DNA of 64,000 nucleotides from a virus: positions 1 through 64,000 of the IMG/VR virus record IMGVR_UViG_3300032896_000001; one strand, written 5' to 3'. A program made the position numbers and the translations under genes. The notes below the pieces were generated by a model, which ran no database searches, was not told the DNA's origin, and saw nothing but the letters and a program-made list of their open reading frames with translations. This document shows, piece after piece, positions 7,855-44,201 of the stretch (positions are counted from its first letter, which is position 1; each line of letters starts with the position of its first letter).

Positions 7855-8580
7855 CTACTGCGCCAGACGGCACTGGAGATCCGGGCGGGACGTGATGTAA
7901 GCACGCCAAGGAATAGCACCCTGGAGGGCCGCGTCGCGCGCACGGCACGCTTCCACGATCCGCTGCGGGTCGCTGACCCGGGTCGCGCCGGCCCATGAGC
8001 CGTCCGTGTTGTACCGCATGAGGTAAAGCCTGCTGGAGTCGAACAGCCAGAAGTCGGCGTGGGGCACGCCGGCCGGCCACTCGTCCGTGACGGGGATGAT
8101 GCCGATCTCCTCGCCGGCCGCCGCGTTTCCCGGGTACCCCTCGGTGAGCTCTTCCCGCATGGAGGAGGTGAGGGGCTCGGTGACGACGTGGACGCGCTGG
8201 TGGGTCTTGCCCCACCGGCGGTTCGCCTTGACGAGCGCCGCCCATTCGGGGGCCGGGCCGGTCCCCTCGTAGTGCTGGAGCTGCTCGAGGCGGAACGCCG
8301 ACCAGGAGAACGTCTCGAACTGCGCGCCGAACTCGGCCGCGTCCACGTCCTCGTCGCGAGGCTGTAGAGCCTCGCTGACGGTCGCGCGCTTGATGATGAC
8401 GGCGTTCTCGTCGCCGGCGACCCCGGTGAGCCGCCCGAGCAGGTCAGGGCCTGCCTGCTTGCCCTGGACCACCAGGTCTCCGGGCAGTTCGTCCAGGTCG
8501 TAGACGGCGGGGCAGGAGCCCCCGGTGCAGCCGTCCCGGGCGAGCATTCGAGGATGCATGGCGCGATCCTTCCTATCCAT
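7855..8580 (-). CDS. DUF6879-family protein with fused small N-terminal domain
   Basis: SAFRLEQLQHY...RVHVVTEPL...AGEEI...DFWLFD; N-terminus CPAVY...LVVQG. Confidence 0.75.
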   Translation of the reverse strand: MDRKDRAMHPRMLARDGCTGGSCPAVYDLDELPGDLVVQGKQAGPDLLGRLTGVAGDENAVIIKRATVSEALQPRDEDVDAAEFGAQFETFSWSAFRLEQLQHYEGTGPAPEWAALVKANRRWGKTHQRVHVVTEPLTSSMREELTEGYPGNAAAGEEIGIIPVTDEWPAGVPHADFWLFDSSRLYLMRYNTDGSWAGATRVSDPQRIVEACRARDAALQGAIPWRAYITSRPDLQCRLAQ

Positions 8581-8789
8581 GGATTATCCACACCAGCATC
8601 GTGCCGCCGGCCCCAGAGGGTCAAGCCGTCTCGTGCGATCGGACCGCGCCATGCCCCTGACCTGTCCCTTCCGTTAATCCCAAAGTAAACCATGAGAGCG
8701 CTTGACGCTAGGTTAACGGTTTGGTTCACTGGGAGGTGTCAGGCGGTTGCAGCGCCTGACGCGCCAGCCGAGCGAGAGGAGCCAGCCGG

Positions 8790-9065
8790 ATGCCGGACGA
8801 CGTGACCGCCGTCGCTGATGAGTGGATCGAGGTCGGCGACGCCGCCACCATGCTCGGGTTCGACGCCGAGACCATCCACCGTCTCGTCCGCGACAAGTCA
8901 TGGCCGTCGATCGGCATCGCCGGCAACGGGCGCACCGCCCGCCGCATCCCCCGCGCCCTCGTCATCGAGGCCCGCCGCGCCGTGTTCTCCGGTGAGACGG
9001 TGGAACTCCGCGACTTCGCCCGCACATGGTCGGCTCGCAACGCCTCACCCGAGGCGGTGGCGTAG
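8790..9065 (+). CDS. Excisionase/Cro-like HTH, divergent from the regulator pair
   Basis: WIEVGDAATMLGFDAETIHRL; upstream TTGACG-N17-TTCACT at 8702-8730. Confidence 0.75.
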   Translation: MPDDVTAVADEWIEVGDAATMLGFDAETIHRLVRDKSWPSIGIAGNGRTARRIPRALVIEARRAVFSGETVELRDFARTWSARNASPEAVA

Positions 9066-9242
9066 ATGGGCCGCCTTGAGCTGACCGACGTCTGCGCGGG
9101 CTGCGGGGCCGTGCTCTGGATCGGGCAGGCGCATTCCTGCCCGCGCCGTGCACTGGCCCCCGAAACGCAACGGCCCGCCTCGGCGATCTCAGCGCCGGGC
9201 GGGCCATGGACATCCCAATCGCCTCCCGATCGGACATCCGAC

Positions 9243-10753
9243 ATGAATCTAACCGCTGAAGCCCCCGCCCGCACCCAGGACGCCGACGACACGCCCGCGC
9301 TTGACGCGGGCCGCACCAGCCGCATGGCGGCGACCCTCCTCCGGAGGGGCTGCTCCCCGGAGAGCGTCCGCGAGTACGCGGCATCCCGCCCCCGGTTCGC
9401 TTACATGTGGGACGCGATCGCGGGCGCGATGACCGCGCTCGCCGACGACGCGCCTGCGGTGCCCGCCCAGCGGACCGCCCCCGCACCCGAGACGGCCCCG
9501 TCATGAGCGCCGTGACGATCGCCTACGCGCGCACCGCGACGGAGGGCGGCCGGGTCGTCGCCCGGGAGGAGCGCGTCACCGCGCTGCCCGGCCGCGTCTG
9601 CATCCGGAAGTTCCGCGACGGCCGCTCCCGGCCCGGCCACGGCCTGGAGATCCGGACCCGCTTCCCGGCTTTCACGGCCTGGCGGGTCGGCCGGGCGCTG
9701 AGGCGAGACGGGTACGTGCGCCGTGGCTAGCGTCCTGCGCTCGTCCGCGACCACCGCCGCCGAGCTCAACCAGTGGTTCGCCGGCATCGACGCCATGCGC
9801 GAGTCCGACAACCCCGGCGGGGAGCACGCCGGCGAGGCGACCCTGGAAGCCGGGCAGGCCGCGGTCGACGCCCTCAACGCGAGCAGGGGGAAGCGGTGAA
9901 CGCCGAGGCCCTGTACGACGCTCTCATGTGCGCGGCCGAGGCCGTCATCGCGGGAGAGGTCGGCGAGACCGGCAGGCAGGAAGCCGCGCTGATGGAGGCG
10001 TCCATCGCATCCGTCGGCGCTTTCCCCGCCGGGAGCCGCGAGGCCGACGCGCTCGGGATCATCCTCGAGGCCGCAGGCCGGATACGCGAGGCGACGCCGT
10101 GAACCGCAACAGCCAGACGCCCCCGGATCCGCGTGACTGCATCCTTTGCGCGAGCCTAACCGGCCCCGGCTGCCCTCACCACCCGAGGAGTTCGTCATGA
10201 CCGACATCATCGACACGTCCGACTTCAAGGCGCTGCGCAGCCTCGCCGCCCGGTGGCGCGGAGGCATGCTGTCCGCCCGGTTCGCGAAGGAGCTCGACTG
10301 CGTCCTGGACGTGATCGCGGCCCGGCGCGAGGTGGGCGGCGACGTCTTCTACACCGGCACCCACGGCGACAGCATCACCGAGCTCCGCGAGGACGCTCTG
10401 TCCCAGGCGATGGCCCTGTGGGGCGAGAAGGCGCGCTGCGAAGTCGAGAGCGTCGGCAGCGTCCAAGGCTTGCGCCACAGCGCGTTCCGCTTCGGGGCCA
10501 CGGTCTGGGTGCGGTGCCTCAACTACGAGGAGGTCCGCAAGTGACCGCCTCCGACTTCATCCGCTCGGTCCTCGCCGGGCTCGCGATCTCGGCGATGTTC
10601 GCCGCGGTCTTCTTCGCGGTCAGGCCCGCGCCGCCGGCCCCGGTCTGGGTCTTCGTGCCGTCGGCCTTCAGCCCCGCCGCCGTCCCCTCGGCGTCGCCGA
10701 CGTGCCCTGCCGCGATACCCGGCCTGACCGAATGCGGGAGGACTGCGCGATGA
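9243..10753 (+). other. Cluster of about six small hypothetical ORFs
   Basis: Overlapping stops and starts; ORF track stops at 9506, 9730, 10102, 10544, 10753. Confidence 0.55.
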
Positions 10754-11058
10754 CCGCCCCGGCCCTGATCTTCCGCCCCGGCTCCGCTGACCCCTGGTCG
10801 CGCCGGGAGACCCCGCTGGACTGGCAGGCCCACGCGGCGTGCCTGAACACGGGTCCGGACCTGATGTTTCCCGAAAAGGGCGACAGGAGCCCGGCCCCCA
10901 AGCGGATCTGCGGCTACTGCCCCGCCCGCCGCGAGTGCCTTGAGTACGCGCTCGAGAACGACGAACGGCACGGAATCTGGGGCGGACTGACGCTGCGCGA
11001 GCGCCGTCGGCTGCCCCGCCCCGCCGCCCCGCAGATCGCCAGGAGGCTAGCAGCATGA
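10750..11058 (+). CDS. whiB: WhiB-family Fe-S transcription factor
   Basis: WQAHAAC...FP...ICGYCP...CLEYAL...GIWGGLT; four Cys plus GIWGG. Confidence 0.95.
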   Translation: MTAPALIFRPGSADPWSRRETPLDWQAHAACLNTGPDLMFPEKGDRSPAPKRICGYCPARRECLEYALENDERHGIWGGLTLRERRRLPRPAAPQIARRLAA

Positions 11059-11273
11059 CCGCACGCGCCCTCGACCTCGAGGTGCTCCGCAACGGCAGGC
11101 CGCAGGACACGTTCCAGGCGAACGGCGACCCTGAGGATCTCGCGTGGCTTCAGAAGCGGCTGCAGGGCTGGCTCGAGGCGAAAAAGTGGGACCGGCCGCT
11201 GTGGGGCGCGTTCGAGATCGTGGCGCGCGAGGCCGGGAAGTCCCGCCAGCTCGCGAAGGCGAGGGCCGTGTGA
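11055..11273 (+). CDS. Hypothetical protein
   Basis: ATGA coupling to whiB. Confidence 0.6.
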   Translation: MTARALDLEVLRNGRPQDTFQANGDPEDLAWLQKRLQGWLEAKKWDRPLWGAFEIVAREAGKSRQLAKARAV

Positions 11274-11818
11274 TGCCGTACGCCCGCGACCGGATCGCGC
11301 CGGCGAGCAGCGAAAGCGCCCGCCGCCGCCGGGACATGTTCGGGTATCTTCACGCACCCGGCAACCCCGGCGACTGGGAAGATCGTTTCCACTCCGCCAT
11401 CGCCTGGCTCGGCTCGGCGCTCGTGTACTCGCGGCGCCGCAGCTACCCGTCCGCCGCCCGCCGGGAATGGGCGCACGCCCGGCGGCTGCAGATCATCGCC
11501 GACGCGGCCGCCGCCGTTCAGGAAGCCGGGAACGCGGTGGACGCCGCCTTCCCGGAGCACCGCTCGTCATGGGATCGCCGTCAGGCGCTCCGGGGCGCCT
11601 ACCACCGGGCGCGCGAGACGCGCTCCGTCGACGAGCGGCCGTGGCGGCTGGACGCGTCTCGCGCCTGGCTGATGACCGGGATGCGCCAGGCCGAGCGGTA
11701 CGCCGCCCGCCGCGGCGCCCCCGAGGCGCTGGCGGAGGTTGCGCGGATCGTGAACGAGGTCGCCGGCAGGCTCGCCGCATGGGCCGAGGAGATGGACTCT
11801 GATGACTACGGCCAGTGA
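11273..11818 (+). CDS. Hypothetical protein
   Basis: TGATG coupling; GC-rich third positions. Confidence 0.6.
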   Translation: MPYARDRIAPASSESARRRRDMFGYLHAPGNPGDWEDRFHSAIAWLGSALVYSRRRSYPSAARREWAHARRLQIIADAAAAVQEAGNAVDAAFPEHRSSWDRRQALRGAYHRARETRSVDERPWRLDASRAWLMTGMRQAERYAARRGAPEALAEVARIVNEVAGRLAAWAEEMDSDDYGQ

Positions 11819-12251
11819 CGAGCTGGGGCTGAGGGAAGCAGGGAAGGCAGTCGAGCGGGATTCCCTGCCGGAGTCTCTACGCGGGCAGGTGCGGACGTGC
11901 GCGAGCAGTCTACCACTTCCCTCCGCGACCGCCCTCCCTCCCGTCACGGAACGTGCCCGCGCTGCGGCTGCCATGGCGGTCCGCGCAGGCGCGAAGGCGG
12001 CCGAGCTCGCCGACCGCCCGGGCTCGCTGGTCCACGCCCAGCCGCCGACTTTCGCCCAGGCGCTGGCACGCCACCATGAGCGCGCGGCGGCGCACCAGGC
12101 ACCGCTCCTCCGGGGCCTTCGCCTCGTCTGGGGATACGCCCACGTGCTGCTCGTCAAGCCGCCGCTGAACCTGCTCGAGTGGGTCACCGAGACGCCGCTG
12201 CGCGCCCTCGGGGCCGTGGCCCTCGTCCTGATCGTCTACTTCTTCCGCTAG
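11802..12251 (+). CDS. Membrane protein of the transfer module
   Basis: C-terminal hydrophobic helices; located upstream of traB. Confidence 0.6.
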   Translation: MTTASDELGLREAGKAVERDSLPESLRGQVRTCASSLPLPSATALPPVTERARAAAAMAVRAGAKAAELADRPGSLVHAQPPTFAQALARHHERAAAHQAPLLRGLRLVWGYAHVLLVKPPLNLLEWVTETPLRALGAVALVLIVYFFR

Positions 12252-12260
12252 GAGCCACCC

Positions 12261-12686
12261 GTGAACCTGACCGTCGCCGAGCTGGGAGTGCTGCTGCTCC
12301 TGCTGTTCGGCCTGTTCCACTACCTGCGGATACTCGCCAAGACAAGATCCGTGCTCGCGTTCCTCGGCGCGGTCGCCGTCGGGCTGACCGGGACTGTCGG
12401 GCGCATCGCGGCGGGCGTCGCGGACTGGGCGCAGCACGCGGTCGGGTCGGTCACGGCGTGGGCGTTCGGCTCCGCGGTGTCCGCCGCGCTGTTCATCGCC
12501 CTGGTCATCCTGCTCGCCCATGACCTGCACCCGAGGAAGTCGGCCAGCGCCCGCACCGGCTACCTGGCGCTCGCGGCCGGGGTGCTCCTCGTCGCGGGCG
12601 TCTCGCAGATCCCCGCGCTCGCCCCCGCGGCCGGCGCCATCCGCTCGCTCCTGGCGCAACTCGCCCAGTTCGTGAACACCCTGTGA
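12261..12686 (+). CDS. Four-transmembrane Spd-like membrane protein
   Basis: Four hydrophobic stretches; context upstream of traB. Confidence 0.65.
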   Translation: MNLTVAELGVLLLLLFGLFHYLRILAKTRSVLAFLGAVAVGLTGTVGRIAAGVADWAQHAVGSVTAWAFGSAVSAALFIALVILLAHDLHPRKSASARTGYLALAAGVLLVAGVSQIPALAPAAGAIRSLLAQLAQFVNTL

Positions 12687-12693
12687 GGCCGCC

Positions 12694-14088
12694 GTGCAGC
12701 TCATCGTCCTGATCATCTTCATCTACGCCGCGAAGTCCGCGTGGGAAGACGCGCGCAAGGCGTGGCGCACGTCGAAGACCGCCTACATGAAAAGCGCCGA
12801 CGCCCGGTTCCCCGGAGCCCCGAAGTCCCGCCGGGCGGCGTGGGCGATCCGGCATGACGCCGGGTACTGGGCGTCGCAGCTGGCGAACGGCCTCCCGTCG
12901 GCCCGGCACGGGTTCGCCGCCGGATGGCACCAGGGCCGCGACGCGCAGACCGCCGCGCGGACAGCGCGGGAGGAAGCCCGCACGCGGCGCCTGGAGAACC
13001 AGGCTGACCACGCCGAGCGCCTGTCGGGGTTCCGCGAGCGGCAGCAGGACGCGCTCCGGCGCTGGCGGGAGGCGATGAACGCCGACCGGGAGCGGGAAAC
13101 CGAGGGCGCCGTCACGGGGGAAGGCAGCGCAGGAAGCGGGGAAGGCAGTCCCGATTTCCCTCGCCTCATGCACGTCAGGAGCAGGAGCGGCCAGCCGCTC
13201 AACATGTTCACAGGCGACCCCTTCGACACCATCACCGTCTACGACGCCGACGACCTGCGCCGCCGGCAGGAAGCCGCCGCCGGGAACCCGGACATCGAGA
13301 TCACGACGGAGCCGCTGCCCGAGCCCGAAGACGGCGCGGTGAGCCGGACCGACTGCTGCCTGTGCGGCCTCCCCCTCGCGGCGGGCGACGGCAACGACGG
13401 CTACACCCACGCCCGTTGCGACGACGTGCACGAGCGGGACAACGCCGCGCACAACATCGGCGACAACCGCGACCTTGACGAGGTCGAGGCCGACATGCGG
13501 GAGCAGGGCATGTGCCCGTGGCAGATCCGGGCGCCCGGGTGGGACGGCTGCGGCCTCTACTGCGGCCGGCCGATCACCGGCACGGGCGGCGACCGGCCGG
13601 ACGAGTACTGCCTCCTGCACCAGGCGCAGGCGGACGGCGACGACGAAGGGGCCGCGCAGGAGCTGAACGAGCACGTTCAGGGGCTTCTTCGGAAGGCGGA
13701 CCGGCAGGAAAGCCCTGCATCCGCGCAGGCAGCACCATCAACCCAGGGAGAACAGCACATGGCATCCGACGTCACCTACGACAGCGTGATCACGAGCATG
13801 GCGGCCGAGCAGGCAAGCGCCGAGCAGCGCGCGGCCGAGCAGCAGCAGGCCGTCGCCCGCGCGAGCGCGATGGCCGACCAGATGCAGGGCCTCGAGGTCG
13901 ACTCCGCGACGCTGAGCGCGATGTACGACCACCTCGAAGCGCAGGACGCCGCCAGCAAGGCGCAGGCGCGCGTGCTGGAGACCGCCGCGGCGGTCGGCGC
14001 GACCCTGAGGCGCGGCCACGCCGGCCTCGCGGAAGCTCACCAAAGCGCCCCGGTTCAGGCCGCGACTCGCGACTTCTATCAGGGTTGA
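12694..14088 (+). CDS. Multidomain transfer-associated protein (N-terminal TM, Cys motifs, C-terminal helical domain)
   Basis: Hydrophobic N-terminus; CCLCG and CGLYCG; C-terminal MASDVTYDS...RDFYQG with its own possible RBS near 13745. Confidence 0.65.
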   Translation: MQLIVLIIFIYAAKSAWEDARKAWRTSKTAYMKSADARFPGAPKSRRAAWAIRHDAGYWASQLANGLPSARHGFAAGWHQGRDAQTAARTAREEARTRRLENQADHAERLSGFRERQQDALRRWREAMNADRERETEGAVTGEGSAGSGEGSPDFPRLMHVRSRSGQPLNMFTGDPFDTITVYDADDLRRRQEAAAGNPDIEITTEPLPEPEDGAVSRTDCCLCGLPLAAGDGNDGYTHARCDDVHERDNAAHNIGDNRDLDEVEADMREQGMCPWQIRAPGWDGCGLYCGRPITGTGGDRPDEYCLLHQAQADGDDEGAAQELNEHVQGLLRKADRQESPASAQAAPSTQGEQHMASDVTYDSVITSMAAEQASAEQRAAEQQQAVARASAMADQMQGLEVDSATLSAMYDHLEAQDAASKAQARVLETAAAVGATLRRGHAGLAEAHQSAPVQAATRDFYQG

Positions 14089-14103
14089 GAGAAGCCAGCG
14101 GTC

Positions 14104-14457
14104 ATGCCCCGGAGCACCAGGAAGCCGGATGTTCCGGGGCTGGCCGTCCGGCGTCACTACTGCGGGCAAGGCTGGGAGATCATCCACGAGCCGTCAGGAG
14201 CGACACTCGGCCTCTGGCTGAGGCTTCGCCGTCAAGCCGAAGCGGCCATGTCTGACTTCGGCGGTACCGGCGAAGACTTCACCCTCACCCGCGATGAACT
14301 GCAGAAAAGCCAGAAATTCCGAGAGATCGGGACAGTACTCAAGGATTGGCGCGACCGGCAACGGCACTGCTGCCGGGATGGCGAGCACTACTCAGTCCAC
14401 TCGTACGCGATGGAAGGCCGCTGCACCGGAGACAACGGGGCCCCTCGCCGTTCGTGA
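14104..14457 (+). CDS. Hypothetical protein, lower GC than neighbours
   Basis: GWEIIHEPSG; atypical codon usage. Confidence 0.5.
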   Translation: MPRSTRKPDVPGLAVRRHYCGQGWEIIHEPSGATLGLWLRLRRQAEAAMSDFGGTGEDFTLTRDELQKSQKFREIGTVLKDWRDRQRHCCRDGEHYSVHSYAMEGRCTGDNGAPRRS

Positions 14458-14500
14458 CCGACGACCCGCAATCAGCTTTATTCGAGAAAGGAACACGACG

Positions 14501-16513
14501 ATGCCGCGACGGCGAACGCGGGAAGTGCCGCGCTGGAAGCGCGGCAAGACCACGCAGCATCCCGCGCAGGTCATCCAGCTGCGCGGCCGCGACGCCCGCT
14601 CCCTCGTCCGGGAGCTCGCAGTCCGCGACGCAGGGCAGGCAGGGAAGGCAGGCAGCGGGGCTGCGCCCGTCAACGACGCCCTCGCCCGCACCGGGGCGTG
14701 GCGGCGCCGGCGGTCGCTCCCCCCGCTCGCCTGGGGCGCTGGCATCGCGGTGCTGGGCGCGGCGATGCGCGCCACCCCGAACCCGGTCCTGTTCGGCATC
14801 CTCGGCGGCATCGCGGCGTCCGCCCTCGAGGTGCTGCTCACCCGCCACCTGTCGGCGTTCGCCCGGCACTGGCACAACGCCGGCGCGTTCCTCGCCCTCG
14901 CCTGGGTGCCGACGCTCGCCGCCTTCGGGTTCGGCGCGCCCGCCCCCGCCGCGCTCGCCCTCACGTGGCTCGTGCCGTCCGCCTTCTGGTGGCGGCACTA
15001 CCGCATCAGGCAGGAAGGCAGCGCAGAGCAGGCAGTGCAGCCGGGCGATTCGCCTGACCAGGTCATATGGGAGCGGCTCGCCGCGAAACGCCGCTGGGCC
15101 GGCCGCCTGCAGAACCCCGAGGGCATCCCCGACGGGCGGAAGTGGGAGATCGTCCTTGACGGCTCGGAAACCAACATCGGCGAGGTGCTCTCGCAGCCGC
15201 GCGCCCTCGCCGCCGCCTACGACAAGGCCATGACCGAGGCGTACGCCGAACCGCACCCGACCGGGGTCGAGTCGCGCGGCGTGCTGACTCTCCTGAAGGC
15301 CGGGACGCTGCAGGCCGGCCATGACTGGGACGGCAGGGGATTCAACGAGCAGGGAATCGCCCGCGTCGGGCGGTTCGCCGACAGTCAGCCGGTCCGCATC
15401 CGGGTTTTCGTGCCCCGCGACGGCACCAGGCACAGCCTGATCGCCGGAACCACAAGGGCGGGCAAGTCAGAGCTGCTGAATCTGATTCTGTGGCTTGCGG
15501 TCCGGTCCGAGGTCCCGATCGTGCCCGTGATCCTGGACCCGCAGAACGGCCAGTCGCTCCCCCAGTGGGCCGGCAAGGTCATCTACGCCGCCGGCGCGGA
15601 GGAGTGCGCCCGCCTGCGGCGAGGGCTGAACGCCGGCATGATGGACCGCTCGCGCCGCCTCGCGTCGATGAGGTGGGATGACGACGGGCACACGGCTAAG
15701 GGCTTCAACTTCTTCGACGCCCGCCTGTCCGGCCTGCCGATCGTCATGGTCATCACAGACGAGGCGCCCGTGCTGCTGTCCGGCGGCGGCAACGCGACCC
15801 TCGCCGCCGAGATGATCCGCCTCACGGCCGAGAGCGGCAAACTCGGGGGCAAGGTCGGCGACAGCGAGATCGTCGTCGCCCAGGTGCCTTCCCTCGGCGA
15901 GCTCGGCGACCAGGCGCTCCGGTCGATGCTCGTCGGCGGCAACGTCATCGGCCTCCGGACGGGCGACAAGGTGTCCGGAGGCATGGCCGGCCTCGAAGCC
16001 GACCCGCACGCCCTGCCGAAGTACTTCCCGAACGGGGAGCCGACCTACGGGCTCGGCTACGCGGTCACGATGGACAACCGGCAGGCCCCGATGCGGACCG
16101 ACATCGTGCCGTCACGCATGCGGCACCAGCCCGTCACCGTTCCCTCGCTGGAAGACGAGTTCCTCGAGGCGATGGACCGGGCGATGGGCGCTCAGGGCGT
16201 CCTACTGCCTTCCCTGCCTGCGCTGCCTTCCCTCCCCCCGCCGGCGGACACGGACGTGGACGGCCCGGAGGGGCGCCGCTGCACCGACGCCGTCCTCCAG
16301 GTCCTCGCGGACAGGGGGAAGGAGATGGAGCGCGGCGAGATCATCAAGTGGGTCGGGAAGCTCGCCGTGACCGGCTGGGGCCGCGCGAAGCCGTTCAGCA
16401 TCAAGTCCGTCGGCGACGCCCTCAGGAAACTCACCGAGGCCGGGACGATAACCAGGGTCCGGGGCGGCGTGTACCAGGCGGCTAGCACGCAGGAGGCCAG
16501 GCCTTCCCGGTAA
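14501..16513 (+). CDS. traB: TraB/FtsK-SpoIIIE-family conjugative DNA translocase
   Basis: N-terminal TM segments, Walker A HSLIAGTTRAGKS, ILDPQ, Walker B VMVITDEAP, C-terminal winged helix; RBS GAAAGGA. Confidence 0.85.
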   Translation: MPRRRTREVPRWKRGKTTQHPAQVIQLRGRDARSLVRELAVRDAGQAGKAGSGAAPVNDALARTGAWRRRRSLPPLAWGAGIAVLGAAMRATPNPVLFGILGGIAASALEVLLTRHLSAFARHWHNAGAFLALAWVPTLAAFGFGAPAPAALALTWLVPSAFWWRHYRIRQEGSAEQAVQPGDSPDQVIWERLAAKRRWAGRLQNPEGIPDGRKWEIVLDGSETNIGEVLSQPRALAAAYDKAMTEAYAEPHPTGVESRGVLTLLKAGTLQAGHDWDGRGFNEQGIARVGRFADSQPVRIRVFVPRDGTRHSLIAGTTRAGKSELLNLILWLAVRSEVPIVPVILDPQNGQSLPQWAGKVIYAAGAEECARLRRGLNAGMMDRSRRLASMRWDDDGHTAKGFNFFDARLSGLPIVMVITDEAPVLLSGGGNATLAAEMIRLTAESGKLGGKVGDSEIVVAQVPSLGELGDQALRSMLVGGNVIGLRTGDKVSGGMAGLEADPHALPKYFPNGEPTYGLGYAVTMDNRQAPMRTDIVPSRMRHQPVTVPSLEDEFLEAMDRAMGAQGVLLPSLPALPSLPPPADTDVDGPEGRRCTDAVLQVLADRGKEMERGEIIKWVGKLAVTGWGRAKPFSIKSVGDALRKLTEAGTITRVRGGVYQAASTQEARPSR

Positions 16514-16567
16514 GCACCATCGGCGAGCCCAACCGGGGCCCGCCGAAAAACCAAGAGGAGAGAACGA

Positions 16568-16879
16568 ATGTCACTACCCAACCTGACCCCCGACCAGCGT
16601 GCGCAGGCACTCCGGAAGGCCGCGGTCGTCCGCAAGGAGCGCTCCGAGGTGAAGAACCGCATCAGGCGCGGGACCCTGACGCTCGCCGAGGTCATCGGCG
16701 CCGAGGGCGACGTGGTCGGGAAGATGAAGATCTCCGCCCTGCTGACCGCTGTTCCCGGGGTGGGGAAGGTGAAGGCCGCGCAGATCATGGAGTCGGCGGG
16801 GATCGCCCCGAACCGCACTGTGCGGGGTCTCGGCCGGAACCAGCGGGCGGCCCTCGAGCAGGAGTTCAGCGCCGCCTGA
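16568..16879 (+). CDS. mihF: Actinobacterial integration host factor (mIHF/sIHF)
   Basis: LPNLTPDQRAQALRKAA..R.E.K...GKMKISALL..VPGVGKVKA..IM...IAPNR.VRGLG.NQR. Confidence 0.95.
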   Translation: MSLPNLTPDQRAQALRKAAVVRKERSEVKNRIRRGTLTLAEVIGAEGDVVGKMKISALLTAVPGVGKVKAAQIMESAGIAPNRTVRGLGRNQRAALEQEFSAA

Positions 16880-16980
16880 CGCCCCGCAGTCGTGGCCGGC
16901 CCGGACGGAAGCGGCCCCCGGACGGGCCGGTCACCCGAAACACCGAAATCGACGGACATGATCATTAAGGACGGGAGAGC

Positions 16981-18066
16981 ATGGACGACATGAGCCCTGC
17001 GAAGCACGCCGCGAGGAACTGGCACGGGACCGCGCTGGCGGCCCTCATCGCCCTGATCGCGCTCGGCCTGGCCGCGTACGCCGCCGCCGCGTCCTACGAC
17101 ACCGTGTCCGCGCAGGCCGTCATCCACGGGGTGTCGCTGCCGCGCCTGAACCCGATCGGGATAGACGGCGGCCTGTTCGGCATCATCATCTTCGACATCG
17201 CCCTCACCTGGCAGGGCCGGGCGATCTGGTGGCTGCGCCTGGCCGCCCGCGTGTTCGCGCTCGGCACGGTCGCCGCGAACGCCGCCGCCGGGTGGCCCAG
17301 CGCCTACGGCGTCGGGCTCCGCATCGCGGCCCCGGCGCTGTTCGTCCTCATCGTGGAGGGCGGGCGCAGGGTCCTGCTCCACGCCCGGCACGCGGACGAG
17401 CGGGAAAGGCGGGAGGCGCGCAGGGCGGAGCGCCGCGCAGAGCGGGAGCGCCGCCGCGGCGACCGCATCCCGGCGATGCGATGGCTGCTCGACTTCCGCG
17501 GCACCCTCGCCATCTGGAAGCGCATGCAGCTGTGGCGGGAGCCCTCCTACGCGAAGGCGGTCGGCATGGAGCTGGAGCGGCTCGCCGCGATCGAGAAGCT
17601 CGCCGCCCGGTACCGCCCGGGCGCGTGGCAGGACAAGGCCCCCGCCGACCTGGTGTGGATGCTGACCGCCGGCGTGCGGATGGCCGAGGCGCTCGAGCGG
17701 GTGGCGGAACTGACCCGGGCCGAGCCCGCGGTAACGCCGGTCCTCGCCGTGGTGTCCGCCCGGAAGGCCGCCGGTTCCGCGCGGCGGACCGGTACCGGCC
17801 CCGCCCGGTCCGGTTCCGCCCCCCGGCCCGATACTCGTACCGCGCCCGAGGACGACCTCGAGCTTGAGGCGCGAGCATTGAAACTGCTGGCCACGAACCT
17901 GAACATGACCGGCGGGGAACTCGGGCGGAGGCTGGGCGTCAGCGAGGGCTACGGCCGCAAGCTGCGCCGTCGCCTGACCGATACCGGTCCTCTTGAAGCG
18001 GCACCGGACCGCTCCGATGACCGGACTGGTTCCGCTGCGGCGGACCGCAGCGAGGGCCGGGCATGA
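16981..18066 (+). CDS. DUF2637-like membrane protein with C-terminal HTH (Spd-like)
   Basis: ASYD...PIGIDG, four TM helices, coiled coil, MTGGELGRRLGVSEGYGR. Confidence 0.8.
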   Translation: MDDMSPAKHAARNWHGTALAALIALIALGLAAYAAAASYDTVSAQAVIHGVSLPRLNPIGIDGGLFGIIIFDIALTWQGRAIWWLRLAARVFALGTVAANAAAGWPSAYGVGLRIAAPALFVLIVEGGRRVLLHARHADERERREARRAERRAERERRRGDRIPAMRWLLDFRGTLAIWKRMQLWREPSYAKAVGMELERLAAIEKLAARYRPGAWQDKAPADLVWMLTAGVRMAEALERVAELTRAEPAVTPVLAVVSARKAAGSARRTGTGPARSGSAPRPDTRTAPEDDLELEARALKLLATNLNMTGGELGRRLGVSEGYGRKLRRRLTDTGPLEAAPDRSDDRTGSAAADRSEGRA

Positions 18067-18614
18067 GCGGTCCGGGCGACGGCGAGTTGGAACTTCCGCC
18101 CGAGCTCTTGGGCGGCACGGAGAGGTACGCGGTCTATCACTGCTACAGCGACTCGGGGGAGTTGCTCTACATCGGCGAGTCGGGTGAGCTCGGCAAGCGG
18201 ATCGCCAGTCATGCGCAGAAGCTGTGGTTCACGCAGGTGCGCGGCATCACCCTTGACTGGTACGCCGACGAGCTCGACGCCCTCAACGCCGAGCGACGGG
18301 CGATCCACGTTGAGCACCCGAAGTACAACAAGCAGCACCGCCGCAAGACGAGCGCCCAGATCGCCAAGCCCAGGAGCGGCGCCCGCAGAAAGCCCGCTCC
18401 GCGCCGGCCTGCGCCAGTTGACGGAGAGGCGACCATGCGGCGCGCTCTGGCGATTCTCGCCGCCGAGCCGGCAATCAGCGCCTCGGAGCTTGGCCGCAGG
18501 CTAGGCCTGTCCGACAGCCGGGGGCGGCAGATCGTCCGGGAATTGTCGAAGACGGCACCCCGGGGGATGGACCTTAGCGGGGCTGAAGCCGAGCCGGAGG
18601 CATCGCGCGAGTAG
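18063..18614 (+). CDS. GIY-YIG nuclease-like domain + C-terminal HTH
   Basis: AVYHCY...LLYIGES...R...H...W...AE..AI..EHPKYN; ISASELGRRLGLSDSRGR. Confidence 0.85.
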   Translation: MSGPGDGELELPPELLGGTERYAVYHCYSDSGELLYIGESGELGKRIASHAQKLWFTQVRGITLDWYADELDALNAERRAIHVEHPKYNKQHRRKTSAQIAKPRSGARRKPAPRRPAPVDGEATMRRALAILAAEPAISASELGRRLGLSDSRGRQIVRELSKTAPRGMDLSGAEAEPEASRE

Positions 18615-18677
18615 CCCGCCACCGAGACTTTTTACACGTCCTGAACTGAAGCCTCGCCCGTCAGGGGCCGGGCGACG

Positions 18678-18716
18678 AAGAGCCCCCCTCGCCATCATCG
18701 GGCGACGGGGGCTCTT
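18678..18716. terminator. Hairpin between convergent genes
   Basis: AAGAGCCCCC / GGGGGCTCTT inverted repeat. Confidence 0.7.
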
Positions 18717-18731
18717 GGCTTTCCCGGACGC

Positions 18732-19004
18732 TCAGCCCTCCCAGGAGACGAGGTGCTTGCTCTCGCCGCCGCACCGCACCGCCGCCGCCCGGTCCGCCTC
18801 GGTGAGGAACGTCTGCGCGCTCTGCGGGATGAGGTTCAGGTCCCCGGCGCAGTAGAGGCGGATCATCTCCGCGTCGAAGCCGTCCGGGTTCCCGAGCGCC
18901 TCCCGCACGACCCGGACGGAGACGAACCGGCCGTCGCCCTCGGCAAGGAACCCGATGATGGCGCGGATCCGGTCCTCGGTGGTCCTGGTGGCCGTGGCGC
19001 TCAT
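18732..19004 (-). CDS. Hypothetical protein in an antisense cassette
   Basis: RBS AAGGAG; LNLIPQS.Q..LT.ADRAAAVRCGGESKHL. Confidence 0.7.
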   Translation of the reverse strand: MSATATRTTEDRIRAIIGFLAEGDGRFVSVRVVREALGNPDGFDAEMIRLYCAGDLNLIPQSAQTFLTEADRAAAVRCGGESKHLVSWEG

Positions 19005-19050
19005 ATCCCGCTCCTTATGTCCGTTCTGCCTGACATGCCTGACATGCCTG

Positions 19051-19079
19051 ACAGTACCCCCGTGGGGTATACGTGTCAA
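19051..19079 (-). promoter_or_regulatory. SigA-like promoter with palindromic operator
   Basis: TTGACA-N17-TACTGT; TACCCC-acg-GGGGTA palindrome; a triple 9-bp TCAGGCATG repeat follows. Confidence 0.75.
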
Positions 19080-19201
19080 GCCTGAACGTGAATAGTCGGG
19101 CGTGGTCGGGCGATCGTCATGGACGGACGCGAATCACCGCAGAACAGACGCCCCGCGAGCCGCGTTGTCACCACTGCTCGCCGTGGGTGATCATTGGGCG
19201 C

Positions 19202-19921
19202 ATGAGCGAGCACGCCTGCCCCGGAACCTGCAACGCCCGCTACCGCGACGCCCTCGAGGAGTACGCCGCCGCCCTGCAGGACTACGACCCGCTCGACTCC
19301 GCCACCTCGCGCCCCGAGCCCCCCTCCATACAGCCCTGGCCCGGGGAGCCCGTCTGGTGCTCCAACTGCTCCCCGAAGATCACCGTGAAGCTCGCCGAGC
19401 TCGACGACCTCGCCGCCCTCCTCGCGGCCACCGCCGACGGGCACCGGCACGCCGACGCAGCCGAGCGCGTCTCCGGCTCCCCCGAGCCCCCCTCCGCCTC
19501 CCCCGAGCACGACGACCTCGACGACCTCTCCACGATGCTCGGCGGCTGGGAATCCGCCTACCGCGACCTCAGGGGCTGGCCGTCACCGCCCCGCCGCGGA
19601 GACCTCGCCAGCACCATGACGACCTGCATCGCCTGGCTCGGCTCCCACCTCCGCGGCATCCTCGCCTCCGACATCGGCGCCGACTTCGGCCGGGAAGTCC
19701 TCCAGTGGCACCGGGAGACCGCCGCCCGCGCCAAAGCCGGGGTGCGGACCCTCCGCAAGCCGCTCCGCTGCCCCACGTGCGGGATGCTGACCCTGTTCTG
19801 GACCGAGGGCGAGACGAACGTCTACTGCGCCGACCCGAACTGCGCCCGCGTCCTGTCCCTCCCGGACTACGAGAACGAAGTCGAGCGGATCACAGCCGAC
19901 GCCACCCGCCGCGCCGCGTGA
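19202..19921 (+). CDS. Cys-motif protein upstream of the terminase (possible late regulator)
   Basis: CPGTCN, WCSNC, C-terminal RCPTCG...YCADPNC; function inferred from position only. Confidence 0.65.
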   Translation: MSEHACPGTCNARYRDALEEYAAALQDYDPLDSATSRPEPPSIQPWPGEPVWCSNCSPKITVKLAELDDLAALLAATADGHRHADAAERVSGSPEPPSASPEHDDLDDLSTMLGGWESAYRDLRGWPSPPRRGDLASTMTTCIAWLGSHLRGILASDIGADFGREVLQWHRETAARAKAGVRTLRKPLRCPTCGMLTLFWTEGETNVYCADPNCARVLSLPDYENEVERITADATRRAA

Positions 19922-20064
19922 GCCGGGACGCCGCCAAACTCGCCCGCGCGCCGACTACCGGAGAACCTGTTACACGGGTTAAGCTCTTTTCCGGATCTTC
20001 ATGTCCTTCGAAGCCCCCTGGCCAGCGCGCCGGGGGGCTTTCGTCGCGTTTGCGAGGTGATCCC

Positions 20065-20337
20065 TTGACCGGCCCGGCGCTCGACATGAACGCCCTCCTG
20101 ACGGCCACCGAGGCGGCCGCCTACGCGGGCGTCACCGTCGCCGCGATCTGCAACTGGCGCAAGCGCGGCTACCTCCCCGTCGCGGTCAACGACAACGGCC
20201 GGGAGATCACCGACGCCCGGGGCCGCCCCCGCTACCGGCTCATCGACGTCGCCAAGGCGGAGTACGCCACCAAGCGGCGCGGCGACCAGATGGCCCGCAC
20301 CGCCGGGCAGCGCAACCTGTCCGCCATCGCCGCGTGA
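20065..20337 (+). CDS. MerR-like HTH DNA-binding protein
   Basis: LLTATEAAAYAGVTVAAICNWRKRGYL...PRYRLIDV. Confidence 0.8.
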   Translation: MTGPALDMNALLTATEAAAYAGVTVAAICNWRKRGYLPVAVNDNGREITDARGRPRYRLIDVAKAEYATKRRGDQMARTAGQRNLSAIAA

Positions 20338-20538
20338 CCGTCGAAGTCGCCGAGACGGACGGCAGGCACCGCGCTATCGTCCCCGCCGACGGAGGCGAGT
20401 CGTTCCCCTGCTGCGAACCCGGCCACCCGGATCCGGGGTCGGCGGCGCTCCACGCATGGACGCTGACGAGAGCGATAGCCCGGCTCGAGGCGAAGGCGGG
20501 CTGACGGGCAGCGCGGGCGGAGGGACCATACGAACACC

Positions 20539-21141
20539 ATGGCCATACGAACGCGGGACGGGAACGGCCGCTACATCCGCACCATCAAGACGACGAAGCG
20601 CGACTTCGACGCGGCCGAGCTCCGGGCGCGCGGCTGGAGGCTCGAGCGGATCGCCGCGGAGCTCGGCTTCGCGTCCCGGGGTCACGTCCACGACGCGGTC
20701 AGCCGCGCGCTCCGCGAAACCCCCTACGACGGCGCCGAGGACGACAAGCTCCTCGACCTGATGCGCATCGACCGGCTCATCGAGCAGGCGTGGGACGTCA
20801 TGCACCGCAAGCACGTGACCGTCTCCCACGGGAAGATCATCACCCGCCAGGTCGGCGTCGAGTGCGATGAGGACGGCATTGAGCGCCTTGACCTCGACGG
20901 CAAGACGATCCCCGTCTACGAGGACGTCCTGGACGACGCGCCGGTCCTCGCCGCAATCCGGGAGATCCGGTCCCTGGTCAAGCGCCGCGCGGAGATCATC
21001 GGCTACGACGCCCCCCTGAAGACGCGCATCGAGGTCATCACCGAGGACGCGGTCGACGCGGAGTGCGAAAGGCTGCTCGCCGAGATCGCGGAGCGGGAGA
21101 AGCGTGAAGCCGCCGCCGCTGATACTGGCGCCGCCGGGTAA
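20539..21141 (+). CDS. terS: Terminase small subunit (HTH type)
   Basis: ELRARGW....IAAELGF...KRRAEIIGYDAP; immediately upstream of terL. Confidence 0.75.
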   Translation: MAIRTRDGNGRYIRTIKTTKRDFDAAELRARGWRLERIAAELGFASRGHVHDAVSRALRETPYDGAEDDKLLDLMRIDRLIEQAWDVMHRKHVTVSHGKIITRQVGVECDEDGIERLDLDGKTIPVYEDVLDDAPVLAAIREIRSLVKRRAEIIGYDAPLKTRIEVITEDAVDAECERLLAEIAEREKREAAAADTGAAG

Positions 21142-22792
21142 AGTCCGCAGGCTCGCCGAGCTCCGCGCCCGCAGGCGCCAGCTGGCCGAGCGGTCCCGCC
21201 GCTCCTGGGCCACGCCGGGGGAGCTCCAGAAGGCGATCGACCCGTCGACAGTCCAGACCCCCGCGCTGGACCTGATCGACGAGGCGATCGTCTGGGCGTA
21301 CAGGACGCCCGGGGCGCGCCTCGCCGTGTCCATCGGGCCGCAGGAGGGCAAGAGCACCCGCGTGACCCGCGGGGGGTCGCTGTGGAAGCTGACCGACGAC
21401 CCGGAGACCCGGATCGGGATCGTCTCCTACGCGCAGGCGCTCGCCGACGGGTTCAGCCGCGACATCCGGAACGCGATCGCCTCCAACAACGGCGACGACG
21501 GGACCCTTGACCTCGGCCTCCGGATCGCCTCCGACTACGGGTCGGCGCGACGCTGGCAGCTCGACGGCCACCGCGGCGGCGTCGTGGCCGCCGGCGTCGG
21601 CTCGGGCCTGAACGGCCGGCCGCTCGACTGCATGGTGGTGGACGACCCGTTCGCCGACGCGGTCCAGGCCGGGTCGGCCTACTACCGCGACCGGGTGTGG
21701 GACTGGTGGCAGACGGTCGGGTCGACGCGACTCGCGCCGGACGGGCCGGTCCTGGTCATCTGCACGAGATGGCACGAGGACGACTTCGTCGGACGGCTCG
21801 TCAAGGCCGAGGACGGCCACCGCTGGCGGGTCGTCAACATCCCGGCCATCGCCGACCACGACCCGGCTCAGGGGCAGTCCGACCCGCTCGGCCGGGAGCC
21901 CGGCGAGTGGCTGACGTCCGCCCGGGGCCGCACGCCGGCCCAGTGGGAGCAGATCCGCATCCAGGCCGGGTCCCGCGCTTTCGCCGCCCTGTACCAGGGC
22001 AGGCCCTCGCCCGACCAGGGCAACGTCTGGCAGCGCCAGTGGTGGCGCTACTACCCGTCGCCCCTGTGGTCCCAGCATCCGGAAGCGCCCGGCGCATGGC
22101 TGGTCGACGCCGACGAGGTACTGATCTCAGTCGACGCCGCTTTCAAGGACACGAAGTCGAGTGACTTCGTGGTCATGCAGGTTTGGGCGCGGCGCGGCGC
22201 GACCGCGTACCTGCTCGACCAGGTCCGCAAGCGGCTGACGTTCACCGAGACCCTGACCGCGTTCACCGCCTTGTGCGCGAAGTGGCCGCAGGCGACCCGG
22301 AAGCTGGTGGAGGACAAGGCCAACGGCACGGCGATCATCGACTCGCTGAAGTCGAAGATCCCCGGCCTGAAGCCTGTGAACCCGACCGACTCCAAGTACG
22401 GGCGGGCGGCGGCGGTCGCCCCGGTGATCGAGTCCGGGAACGTGCTGCTGCCCGATCCGCTGATCGCGCTGTTCGACACGGGGGAACTGGTCACGGAAGC
22501 GGCCCAGTTCCCGAACGGCGCGAACGATGACATGGTCGACGCGACCTCCCAGGCTCTCGCGGAGATGTTCTTGGACGGGACCGGCGGGGCGGCGTGGATT
22601 GCCTGGATCAAGCGCAAGGTCGAGGCCCAGGCTGCAGCGGAGCACGGTGATCGGCCTGGCCCGGAACCGCAATCGGAAGGCGCGAAGACGCCCGATCCTG
22701 AACCGGAAATCCCGGCCGCCCCCCTCAGTGACGCGGAACGCAGGCGGCAGGCCCGCAATGAGATGTACCGCCAGCAGCAGGAGCGCCAATGA
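21104..22792 (+). CDS. terL: Terminase large subunit
   Basis: GPQEGKS, VVDDP, TRWHEDD, ALYQGRP, ISVDAAFK..SDF, VEDKANG, FPNGANDDMVDA. Confidence 0.97.
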   Translation: MKPPPLILAPPGKVRRLAELRARRRQLAERSRRSWATPGELQKAIDPSTVQTPALDLIDEAIVWAYRTPGARLAVSIGPQEGKSTRVTRGGSLWKLTDDPETRIGIVSYAQALADGFSRDIRNAIASNNGDDGTLDLGLRIASDYGSARRWQLDGHRGGVVAAGVGSGLNGRPLDCMVVDDPFADAVQAGSAYYRDRVWDWWQTVGSTRLAPDGPVLVICTRWHEDDFVGRLVKAEDGHRWRVVNIPAIADHDPAQGQSDPLGREPGEWLTSARGRTPAQWEQIRIQAGSRAFAALYQGRPSPDQGNVWQRQWWRYYPSPLWSQHPEAPGAWLVDADEVLISVDAAFKDTKSSDFVVMQVWARRGATAYLLDQVRKRLTFTETLTAFTALCAKWPQATRKLVEDKANGTAIIDSLKSKIPGLKPVNPTDSKYGRAAAVAPVIESGNVLLPDPLIALFDTGELVTEAAQFPNGANDDMVDATSQALAEMFLDGTGGAAWIAWIKRKVEAQAAAEHGDRPGPEPQSEGAKTPDPEPEIPAAPLSDAERRRQARNEMYRQQQERQ

Positions 22793-43307: not shown

Positions 43308-44201
43308 CTAGGGCAGGTCGGGCTCCTGGCTGTCGTCCCACGGGCCGAATTCCTCCGGCGGGAACATGATCTCCGCGACGTCGGCCGGGGTCATCCCGAG
43401 GTCGCGGGCGACCTTCTTGACGGGCGACGGGTGACCTTCGGGGACCTCGTTCCAGGCGTCCCAGACGTCCTTGAACATCTGCTTCGTGCGAATGAAGGCG
43501 GCCTCTTCCGCGTCCTCGGCCGTTGTGGCGTCGTCGGGGACCGCGAACCGGGCGGCCTCGCGCTCCACGTCCGGGACGTCCTCGGCGGACTCGAGGACGA
43601 GCTCGGCGGCGCGCGTGAGCCGGTTGGCGATCAGGAGCGCCTCCTCGGGCGACAGCATCGCGTACGCCTGCTGGCGGTCGTCCCCGTCGATTCCAAGCCC
43701 GACCATGCCGGGGGTCATCCCGAGGTCGCGGGCGACCTTCTTGACGGGCGACGGGTGACCTTCGGGGACCTCGTTCCAGGCGTCCCAGACGTCCTTGAAC
43801 ATCTGCTTCGTGCGAATGAAGGCGGCCTCTTCCGCGTCCTCGGCCGTTGTGGCGTCGTCGGGGACCGCGAACCGGGCGGCCTCGCGCTCCACGTCCGGGA
43901 CGTCCTCGGCGGACTCGAGGACGAGCTCGGCGGCGCGCGTGAGCCGGTTGGCGATCAGGAGCGCCTCCTCGGGCGACAGCATCGCGTACGCCTGCTGGCG
44001 GTCGTCCCCGTCGATTCCAAGCCCGACCATGCCGGGGTCGTGGCCGGGCGCGCCGCAGTCGTCGCATTCGAAGGCGCCCTCGGGGGCGAAGACGTGCTCG
44101 ACGGCGATGCGGTCTCCGCCGCAGTCCCCGAAGACGACTCCGATCGTGCGGGTGCGCATCGGGATGCCCTTGCTGGCGGCTTCGGGTTCGCTCTCGCTCA
44201 C
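43308..44201 (-). CDS. Acidic hypothetical protein with internal 108-aa duplication
   Basis: ORF track; contains the 324-bp tandem repeat. Confidence 0.7.
   Translation of the reverse strand: MSESEPEAASKGIPMRTRTIGVVFGDCGGDRIAVEHVFAPEGAFECDDCGAPGHDPGMVGLGIDGDDRQQAYAMLSPEEALLIANRLTRAAELVLESAEDVPDVEREAARFAVPDDATTAEDAEEAAFIRTKQMFKDVWDAWNEVPEGHPSPVKKVARDLGMTPGMVGLGIDGDDRQQAYAMLSPEEALLIANRLTRAAELVLESAEDVPDVEREAARFAVPDDATTAEDAEEAAFIRTKQMFKDVWDAWNEVPEGHPSPVKKVARDLGMTPADVAEIMFPPEEFGPWDDSQEPDLP
43387..44034. repeat. 324-bp tandem duplication, apparently perfect
   Basis: 43387-43710 matches 43711-44034; landmarks 43471/43795 and 43701/44025. Confidence 0.95.

Follow-up and report, generated by a model that had tools for sequence, protein, structure and literature searches.

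A TraB-like ATPase module with a clustered polar DNA motif upstream of the packaging genes of a large actinomycete phage

Can a tailed phage of filamentous bacteria carry, among its own genes, the machinery to move its DNA from cell to cell without making virions? The question is raised by a gene string in the IMG/VR virus record IMGVR_UViG_3300032896_000001 (105,095 bp), whose bases 1-64000 are hereafter called the window. An initial annotation, made from the sequence alone, read this string as a conjugation module centred on TraB, of the type found on plasmids and on actinomycete integrative and conjugative elements (AICEs), and proposed that the element spreads both as virions and by hyphal conjugation. 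Such dual-mode spread is not a new idea, as pZL12 and pFP4, Streptomyces plasmid-phages (Zhong et al. 2010 and Chen et al. 2012, via PMC3583192 and PMC4170104), have been described as conjugating, virion-making elements. Here we describe the architecture and modelled fold of the ATPase encoded in the string, its family relations, the synteny of the surrounding genes, and the clustering and polarity of a DNA motif found among them. The module is a native, conserved part of the phage genome and, on our reading, belongs to a lineage of such phages and of phage-plasmids from filamentous actinomycetes. We somewhat favour the view that a TraB-type pump, aided by partner proteins in the membrane and by a loading site that acts in cis, transports the double-stranded DNA (dsDNA) of the element between or along hyphae.

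The element is a large tailed phage of filamentous high-GC actinomycetes, of about 105 kb. CheckV puts the completeness of the record at 100%, with no terminal repeat; GC content is ~70% along the whole window, and the same sequence was found in three wetland metagenome runs from three studies. GC content at third codon positions (GC3) marks an unbroken plus-strand gene string from ~10.1 to 18.6 kb. As first described, its genes are co-oriented and mostly tightly packed downstream of whiB, with 4-nt overlaps between whiB and o72 and between the DUF2637 and GIY-YIG genes, and gaps of 9 nt between o149 and o141 and of 7 nt between o141 and o464. The module was also said to lie directly upstream of the virion genes; those for the large terminase (TerL), portal and tape measure do follow it (Table 1), as does a plus-strand gene for a minor tail protein, but a 2.5-kb stretch with other genes (18732-21141) separates the module from TerL, and the ATPase gene ends 4.6 kb before TerL.

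Architecture and relatives of the ATPase

The open reading frame (ORF) of the ATPase is listed from 14294. About 120 homologues measure ~640-690 aa and are conserved from the motif MPRRxxREVPRW onward, and on both counts translation most likely begins at 14498 instead. The protein has Walker A (GTTRAGKS) and Walker B (VITDE) motifs, and its AlphaFold2 model (pLDDT 82) comprises four hydrophobic helices (residues 71-176), which supply the N-terminal membrane association of TraB-type proteins, an alpha/beta P-loop domain, a disordered linker, and a C-terminus of three helices and two strands that forms, in the model, the winged helix of that type. The best Foldseek matches of the ATPase are the FtsK motor (6T8O, E 7e-13) and TcpA of pCW3, an FtsK-like coupling protein in conjugation (6O1W, E 2e-12), with EccC and HerA lower. 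Modelled alone, the C-terminal domain takes the order H-H-H-strand-strand (pLDDT ~90), a generic winged helix whose top Foldseek matches are winged-helix domains with TM-scores of at most 0.89 and E values of only ~2e-3, FtsK-gamma not being among them; its recognition helix is strongly conserved across relatives. At Walker A, Pfam offers only sub-threshold DUF87 and FtsK_SpoIIIE matches (PF01580, 15.8 bits with a cut-off of 24), so that it is the predicted fold, not the Pfam model, that points to an FtsK/SpoIIIE-like motor. A PDB sequence search gave chance-level matches only. In the ESM Atlas, the nearest named clusters carry the automatic label 'plasmid transfer protein TraB' (score 0.97), which we take as a lead only.

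The ATPase found no match in a tblastn search of 50,697 GenBank phage records. Its relatives are encoded by 14 IMG/VR loci and by 90 actinomycete plasmids, 78 of them from Streptomyces, followed by Kitasatospora, Micromonospora, Nonomuraea and Verrucosispora; a scan of genome contigs returned just three loci, in two Streptosporangiaceae metagenome-assembled genomes and one 1.7-kb contig. The highest score of a profile hidden Markov model (HMM) of the family, 265 bits, goes to the ATPase of PhiNon1, plasmid III of Nonomuraea gerenzanensis (NZ_LT559120.1), a self-replicating, integrating chimeric prophage reminiscent of pZL12 (PMC5431353). Streptomyces plasmid ATPases reach 217 and 70 bits and a 751-aa protein of a pZL12-like plasmid 65.8 bits (E 3e-21); AICE-type Tra, FtsK and EccC proteins score 14-22 bits, and Tra of pIJ101 -0.3 bits.

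A motor-domain tree (24 sequences, 382 columns) unites the window family with the plasmid and phage-plasmid proteins, PhiNon1 and the pZL12-like protein included, in one clade (support 100/99), and places three FtsK sequences in a separate one (99/98). The window-family clade is placed with Tra of pIJ101 and Tra proteins of four AICE-type sequences, and away from FtsK, with support of 85/91 and long-branch warnings; a constraint that joins it with FtsK instead is 8.9 log-likelihood units worse (approximately unbiased test, p 0.026), for a group that was named after the tree had been seen. The phylogeny that the initial annotation had proposed as a check is thus firm on the clade with plasmid and phage-plasmid ATPases and less so on its placement beside TraB and AICE proteins. 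The annotation's description of a transmembrane, ATPase and winged-helix TraB likewise stands for architecture and FtsK-type fold, but by its sequence scores the protein is not of the pIJ101 type. On the four plasmids examined, among them the pZL12-like one, the ATPase homologue is the sole FtsK-like ORF; since this holds for the pZL12-like plasmid, the 'major tra gene' of pZL12 is most likely a homologue of the gene for the 751-aa protein.

Conservation of the module and comparison with known systems

The core o72-o149-o141-o464-ATPase is kept in nine of the 14 related loci, each of these nine except L014 having at least three of the four partner genes; WhiB lies upstream of the core in several. 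In the locus L007, whose ATPase is 69% identical, mIHF, DUF2637 and GIY-YIG genes are retained as well and are followed by the portal gene. To the question, raised with the initial annotation, of whether related phages keep the module in the same place, the answer is yes: the core lies upstream of packaging genes in L007 and in three further genomes (G004, G002 and G007). One relative of 105.7 kb, with a 99-bp overlap between its ends, matches the gene order of the phage genome from WhiB to the tail genes, with the module ~10 kb upstream of its terminase. Two further genomes, of 71.7 and 51 kb and with terminal repeats, have module and portal gene on the same strand, the module being upstream by 7-12 kb.

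A separately inserted AICE or plasmid, or an assembly chimera, could also bring such genes together, and the occurrence of ATPase relatives on plasmids would suit this origin, as would a 540-bp direct repeat at 475-1013 and 32909-33445. The repeat, however, is a duplicated Cys-rich gene pair that encloses terminase and portal too. No match to PF00589 or PF00239, for integrases and resolvases, occurs across the entire 105-kb record, and no att-like repeats were found around the module; GC3 is even across the module junctions, and independent viral genomes have the core in the same location. A contig of 21,115 bp, produced by a different assembler, covers 8000-22048 with no differences, and the sequence recurs in three wetland samples. 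Because of the synteny, the lack of att repeats and integrase, the nature of the repeat and the independent contig, we reject insertion or chimerism, which we regard as very improbable. The initial annotation had noted that no att sites or integrase separate the genes, which holds for the record and the surroundings of the module, and had named an independent AICE insertion or misassembly as a danger, which is not borne out. Its label of an AICE-type module has to be given up, as an AICE is recognized by an integrase and flanking att repeats and the phage module has neither. Contig 'joints' were also seen, all with sides of 20-23 nt, and we discounted them as chance matches to DNA of other organisms.

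Among known elements, NZ_CP108500.1 (L004) is a circular 88.5-kb plasmid with virion genes, ParAB, an integrase and a type III polyketide synthase (PKS), and we call it pZL12-like because its PKS, ParAB and virion genes fit the description of pZL12/pSLE1 in PMC4487206. At 25473-35559 it carries a six-gene string that ends in the 751-aa FtsK-like ATPase, directly upstream of the terminase. Like the 105-kb phage, this plasmid combines virion genes and a homologous FtsK-like tra ATPase on one replicon, with the ATPase gene co-oriented upstream of the terminase and close to the packaging genes; the two ATPases share 27% identity over 307 aa. The clustering of the window ATPase with a protein so placed upholds the pZL12 precedent invoked at the outset. 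In contrast to the phage, the plasmid has ParAB and an integrase (the 105-kb record has no match to PF02195 or PF13614, for ParA and ParB), its accessory genes are not detectably related to those of the module, and its virion genes are distant (TerL 32%). The Prokaryotic Genome Annotation Pipeline labels the 751-aa ATPase 'type IV secretory system conjugative DNA transfer family protein', and Pfam matches nothing in it.

Among database entries, the closest relative of the ATPase is that of PhiNon1 (31% identity over 504 aa), within a gene string of DUF2637, three small genes and the ATPase on an element with phage genes. It differs in its size of 59 kb, in its integration at a tRNA-Val gene and in its additional autonomous replication (PMC5431353), and the same source reports no role for its module. 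On linear and circular Streptomyces plasmids (for example NZ_CP108716.1, NZ_CP106800.1 and the 292-kb plasmids of S. rimosus), members of the ATPase clade again keep company with WhiB and DUF2637, with an o464-like ORF just upstream. The order there is WhiB, DUF2637, two to four unknown genes and ATPase, so that DUF2637, unlike in the phage, stands upstream of the ATPase; the proteins are annotated 'hypothetical protein'. NZ_CP108716.1 (77 kb, linear), the one record of these covered in full, carries genes for ParAB and Ku as well as telomere-type helicase genes, and none of its genes is annotated as a virion gene. Besides its WhiB-DUF2637-ATPase string (L050/L027/L051), it encodes a MobF relaxase, a replication-relaxation protein and an 891-aa ATP/GTP-binding protein, and it may hold two different DNA-transfer systems.

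TraB of pSVH1, Tra/KilA of pIJ101 and TraA of pWTY27 share with the phage ATPase a transmembrane region, an FtsK-like motor and a C-terminal winged helix, and the Streptomyces plasmids that encode TraB resemble the module further in a short repeated motif within or close to the gene's 3' end and in adjoining small membrane-protein genes. However, pIJ101 Tra passes PF01580 and has a MarR-type winged helix-turn-helix (HTH), whereas the phage ATPase falls below the Pfam threshold and has no detectable similarity to pIJ101 Tra; the phage motif is scattered over 4.4 kb with a polarity switch, and no homology to SpdA, SpdB or KilB is found. Chromosomal FtsK and SpoIIIE are alike in motor fold, in four N-terminal transmembrane helices and in a C-terminal, DNA-reading winged helix. 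They use FtsK-orienting polar sequences (KOPS) and SpoIIIE recognition sequences (SRS), which the phage motif resembles as a G-rich polar 8-10-mer. The phage ATPase groups apart from these proteins, however, and its motif is confined to the module and not skewed genome-wide.

A clustered polar motif and the possible role of the module

The 10-mer GGGAAGGCAG has six copies in the window, all of them within the module (Table 1). Allowing up to one mismatch, 11 of 17 window sites fall in 11544-16232, shuffled sequences giving 6.0 ± 2.4 sites per whole window. For GGGAAGGCA, seven of the eight copies in the whole genome lie in the module, in a stretch of 5.3 kb, which makes it the most clustered of 3951 tested 9-mers (p 6e-9; in 10 simulated genomes, the best values ran from 1e-7 to 3.5e-5). 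The motif is on the plus strand upstream of the ATPase gene and in its 5' part, and on the minus strand in its 3' part, the flip lying inside the gene. Because the copies occupy three reading phases or strands (encoding AGKA, GEGS and antisense LPSLP), the signal lies in the DNA and not in the protein. L007 has seven copies in its module, at matching positions and with the same polarity, and none outside; the copies in the 3' part of the ATPase gene are matched in position and strand in L007 (+1732 to +1751) and in L008 (+1750). In L008-L013, the modules are enriched in the 7-mer core GAAGGCA, holding 20 of 26 copies in ~29% of the sequence. By our own estimate, an 18/19-nt repeat at 11834/13132 does not by itself exceed what chance would give, significance lying only in the multi-copy clustering.

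As described (PMC3583192, PMC5133688), the clt loci of conjugative plasmids consist of 5-9-bp repeats, in a set particular to each plasmid, that lie within the 3' end of tra or beside it and to which the winged helix binds. Because the clustered short repeats of the phage module resemble such sets, we regard its motif, by analogy, as a candidate clt. TraB binds to short repeats, and at septa it works together with Spd proteins (PMC5133688), and transfer of pZL12 requires the major tra gene together with two genes beside it (PMC3583192). On the reading that we favour, the winged helix of the phage ATPase would recognize the GGGAAGGCAG copies that are grouped within and near the ATPase gene, and these would serve as a clt-like loading site at which the DNA may be bent by mIHF; anchored in the membrane together with partner proteins, the hexameric motor would pump the phage dsDNA genome through a hyphal wall or a cross-wall; and the element would spread between or along hyphae without virions, as Streptomyces plasmids do and as has been reported for pZL12.

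If the module works in this way, mycelial actinomycete phages would possess a second, particle-free route of spread, which would change how we view host range, phage resistance and gene flow in antibiotic-producing soil bacteria. To the pZL12 precedent our findings add a Pfam-invisible clade of TraB-like ATPases common to phages, phage-plasmids and linear plasmids, a phage lineage that has the module and lacks recognizable integration or partition genes, and a candidate recognition motif with conserved polarity. A bolder form of the proposal seems to us doubtful, namely that a phage with neither integrase nor partition genes uses pump, membrane partners and polar docking motifs to send its replicating genome through cross-walls or into touching hyphae; if true, it would amount to virion-free cell-to-cell spread of a phage within a multicellular bacterium, beyond the plasmid-style mating of a resident prophage.

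Several points weigh against transfer by a TraB-type pump. The Pfam FtsK_SpoIIIE score of the ATPase is below the cut-off, the family HMM does not detect pIJ101 Tra, and the branch that leads to TraB and AICE proteins involves long branches and is only moderately supported. The accessory proteins are not detectably homologous to Spd and KilB of pIJ101 or to the genes beside the pZL12-like ATPase. The scatter of the motif compares with ~50-175 bp in described clt loci (PMC3583192), and the two genomes in which the motif is strongest have the DUF2637-HTH and GIY-YIG-HTH genes in common, so that another protein may be its binder. The module-bearing plasmid that also encodes the MobF relaxase and the ATP/GTP-binding protein may transfer by a different route. 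A donor state matters because mating requires a living donor, and with integrase, ParA and ParB missing, no persistent state of this kind, episomal or lysogenic, is evident; Pfam searches with 20 further proteins from the 64-105 kb arm yielded no replication or lysogeny genes. The binder of the motif, the formation of a complex and any transfer of DNA are all matters that we infer.

Two further roles have to be set beside intercellular transfer. The pump may serve vertical inheritance, clearing DNA through cross-walls or sporulation septa in the manner of FtsK or SffA, so that each compartment or spore retains a copy, and thereby replacing the missing ParAB; the FtsK-type fold, the lack of ParA and ParB in the genome, and the converging polarity of the motif, which resembles polar loading sequences, are all in keeping with this, and the small membrane partners resemble SmeA-SffA. 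Yet the ATPase groups apart from chromosomal FtsK, the motif is local, unlike genome-wide orienting sequences, and plasmid relatives of the ATPase coexist with ParAB, and we judge a role in inheritance rather unlikely. Less probable still is a function within the infection cycle, be it superinfection exclusion, the handling at the membrane of DNA that enters or leaves, or defence or anti-defence, with no transfer between cells: although the module is co-oriented just upstream of the packaging genes in several phages and is followed by a gene for a GIY-YIG nuclease, PADLOC gave no meaningful match, a normal terminase is present, and close ATPase relatives occur with DUF2637 and WhiB on a linear plasmid that has no annotated virion genes. 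Transfer of dsDNA between or along hyphae is the reading that we continue to prefer.

Other genes of the module and minor observations

Table 1. Coordinates of module genes, motif copies and virion genes in the window.
Feature	Position	Strand	Remarks
WhiB-family regulator	10702-11058	+	PF02467, 82.5 bits; head of the gene string
o72, small soluble conserved protein	11055-11273	+	first gene of the conserved core; no family match
o149	11802-12251	+	one C-terminal transmembrane helix (hydropathy); kept in 7 related loci
o141, small integral membrane protein	12261-12686	+	~4 transmembrane helices (hydropathy); HDLHPR motif invariant in the alignment
o464	12694-14088	+	N-terminal transmembrane anchor; long charged, Cys-rich middle; helical C-terminus
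TraB-like ATPase, 671 aa	14498-16513	+	basic N-terminus, four transmembrane helices, FtsK-fold motor, Pro-rich linker, C-terminal winged helix
mIHF (actinobacterial integration host factor, mIHF/sIHF type)	16568-16879	+	NF041260, 125.2 bits (cut-off 60); PF22525, 89.7 bits
DUF2637 membrane protein	16981-18066	+	PF10935, 40 bits (gathering threshold 22.8); three N-terminal hydrophobic helices
GIY-YIG nuclease domain + winged HTH protein	18063-18614	+	PF01541, PF13412; phrog_3312 endonuclease
GGGAAGGCAG copy	11841-11850	+	inside the module
two GGGAAGGCAG copies, 21 bp apart	13118-13148 (13118, 13139)	+	inside o464
GGGAAGGCAG copy	14642-14651	+	5' part of the ATPase gene; position (+146/+149) also occupied in L007
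one-mismatch GGGAAGGCAG copy	15012-15021		in the ATPase gene
one-mismatch GGGAAGGCAG copy	15884-15893	-	
two GGGAAGGCAG copies, 18 bp apart	16205-16232 (16205, 16223)	-	linker-coding 3' part of the ATPase gene
TerL (large terminase)	21104-22792	+	PF17289, PF03237; phrog_38, E 1e-98; start of the virion block
portal fusion protein	24587-27829	+	phrog_2662, E 6e-48
tape measure	51665-54985	+	virion block, downstream of the module

The assignments of WhiB, mIHF and the DUF2637-HTH protein made in the initial annotation were all confirmed by profile matches that exceed the curated thresholds, as was that of the GIY-YIG and winged-HTH protein (Table 1), the HTH-like stretch at the C-terminus of the DUF2637 protein being visible though unscored by Pfam. 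WhiB shares 43% identity with its counterpart in a Streptomyces plasmid module and stands upstream of the module also in L007-L009 and L013. Among the phage's relatives, mIHF is common only to L007; a GC-rich hairpin follows its gene. Two Streptomyces plasmid modules encode DUF2637 proteins that the HMM of the DUF2637 family matches (E 1e-29 and 7e-27). The HTH-like segments of the DUF2637 (17881-17973) and GIY-YIG (18432-18548) proteins are alike (ELGRRLG[VL]S...GR), and, to judge from this resemblance, the two proteins may read the same DNA site.

Ten viral loci have a homologue of o72 beside the module, three of them (L010, L011 and L013) on the opposite strand; between o72 and o149, an ORF at ~11279-11818 is probable and unconserved. 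Viral loci hold 12 homologues of o141, whose HMM also has a weak match (E 0.008) to an ORF upstream of the ATPase on a Streptomyces plasmid, and o464 is conserved in 11 loci, its HMM matching the ORF just upstream of the ATPase on the linear plasmid NZ_CP108716.1 (E 7e-9). The Atlas model of o464 (pLDDT 0.51) does not resolve its fold, and the ESM Atlas gave no usable lead for it. None of o72, o149, o141 and o464 has a match in Pfam, PHROG, NCBIfam or PADLOC, and their HMMs match nothing in pIJ101, the sole reference for Spd and KilB homology in a group where Spd proteins are very diverse; the accessory-protein profiles have only weak matches, to ORFs beside the ATPase on two Streptomyces plasmids. 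The Spd-like membrane proteins announced by the initial annotation are therefore membrane proteins in that o149, o141 and o464 have transmembrane helices, but they have no detectable homology to SpdA, SpdB or KilB of pIJ101, and 'Spd-like' describes no more than an analogy in small size and membrane location.

Between o464 and the ATPase gene, 410 bp with weak codon bias (14089-14497) are missing in L007, where the two genes abut; a 117-aa ORF within them has no homologue in the relatives, and the segment may be a regulatory insert or an internal promoter.

Elsewhere in the record, the two copies of the 540-bp direct duplication are 92% identical and hold, on the minus strand, paralogous pairs of small genes for Cys-rich, zinc-finger-like proteins of 70 aa and ~90 aa. 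Between the module and TerL, ATGCCTGAC is repeated three times in tandem at 19040-19066, between the diverging genes 18732-19079 (minus strand) and 19073-19921 (plus strand), and these copies look like an operator. A 331-bp tandem duplication (43384-44037, 99.7% identical) lies inside the minus-strand ORF 43308-44201. At 67.8-73 kb of the genome, a second strongly clustered set of 9-mers (GGCGGGGAA, CGGGGAACG) occurs near the repeat-rich minus-strand ORF 71033-73081 and probably represents coding tandem repeats.

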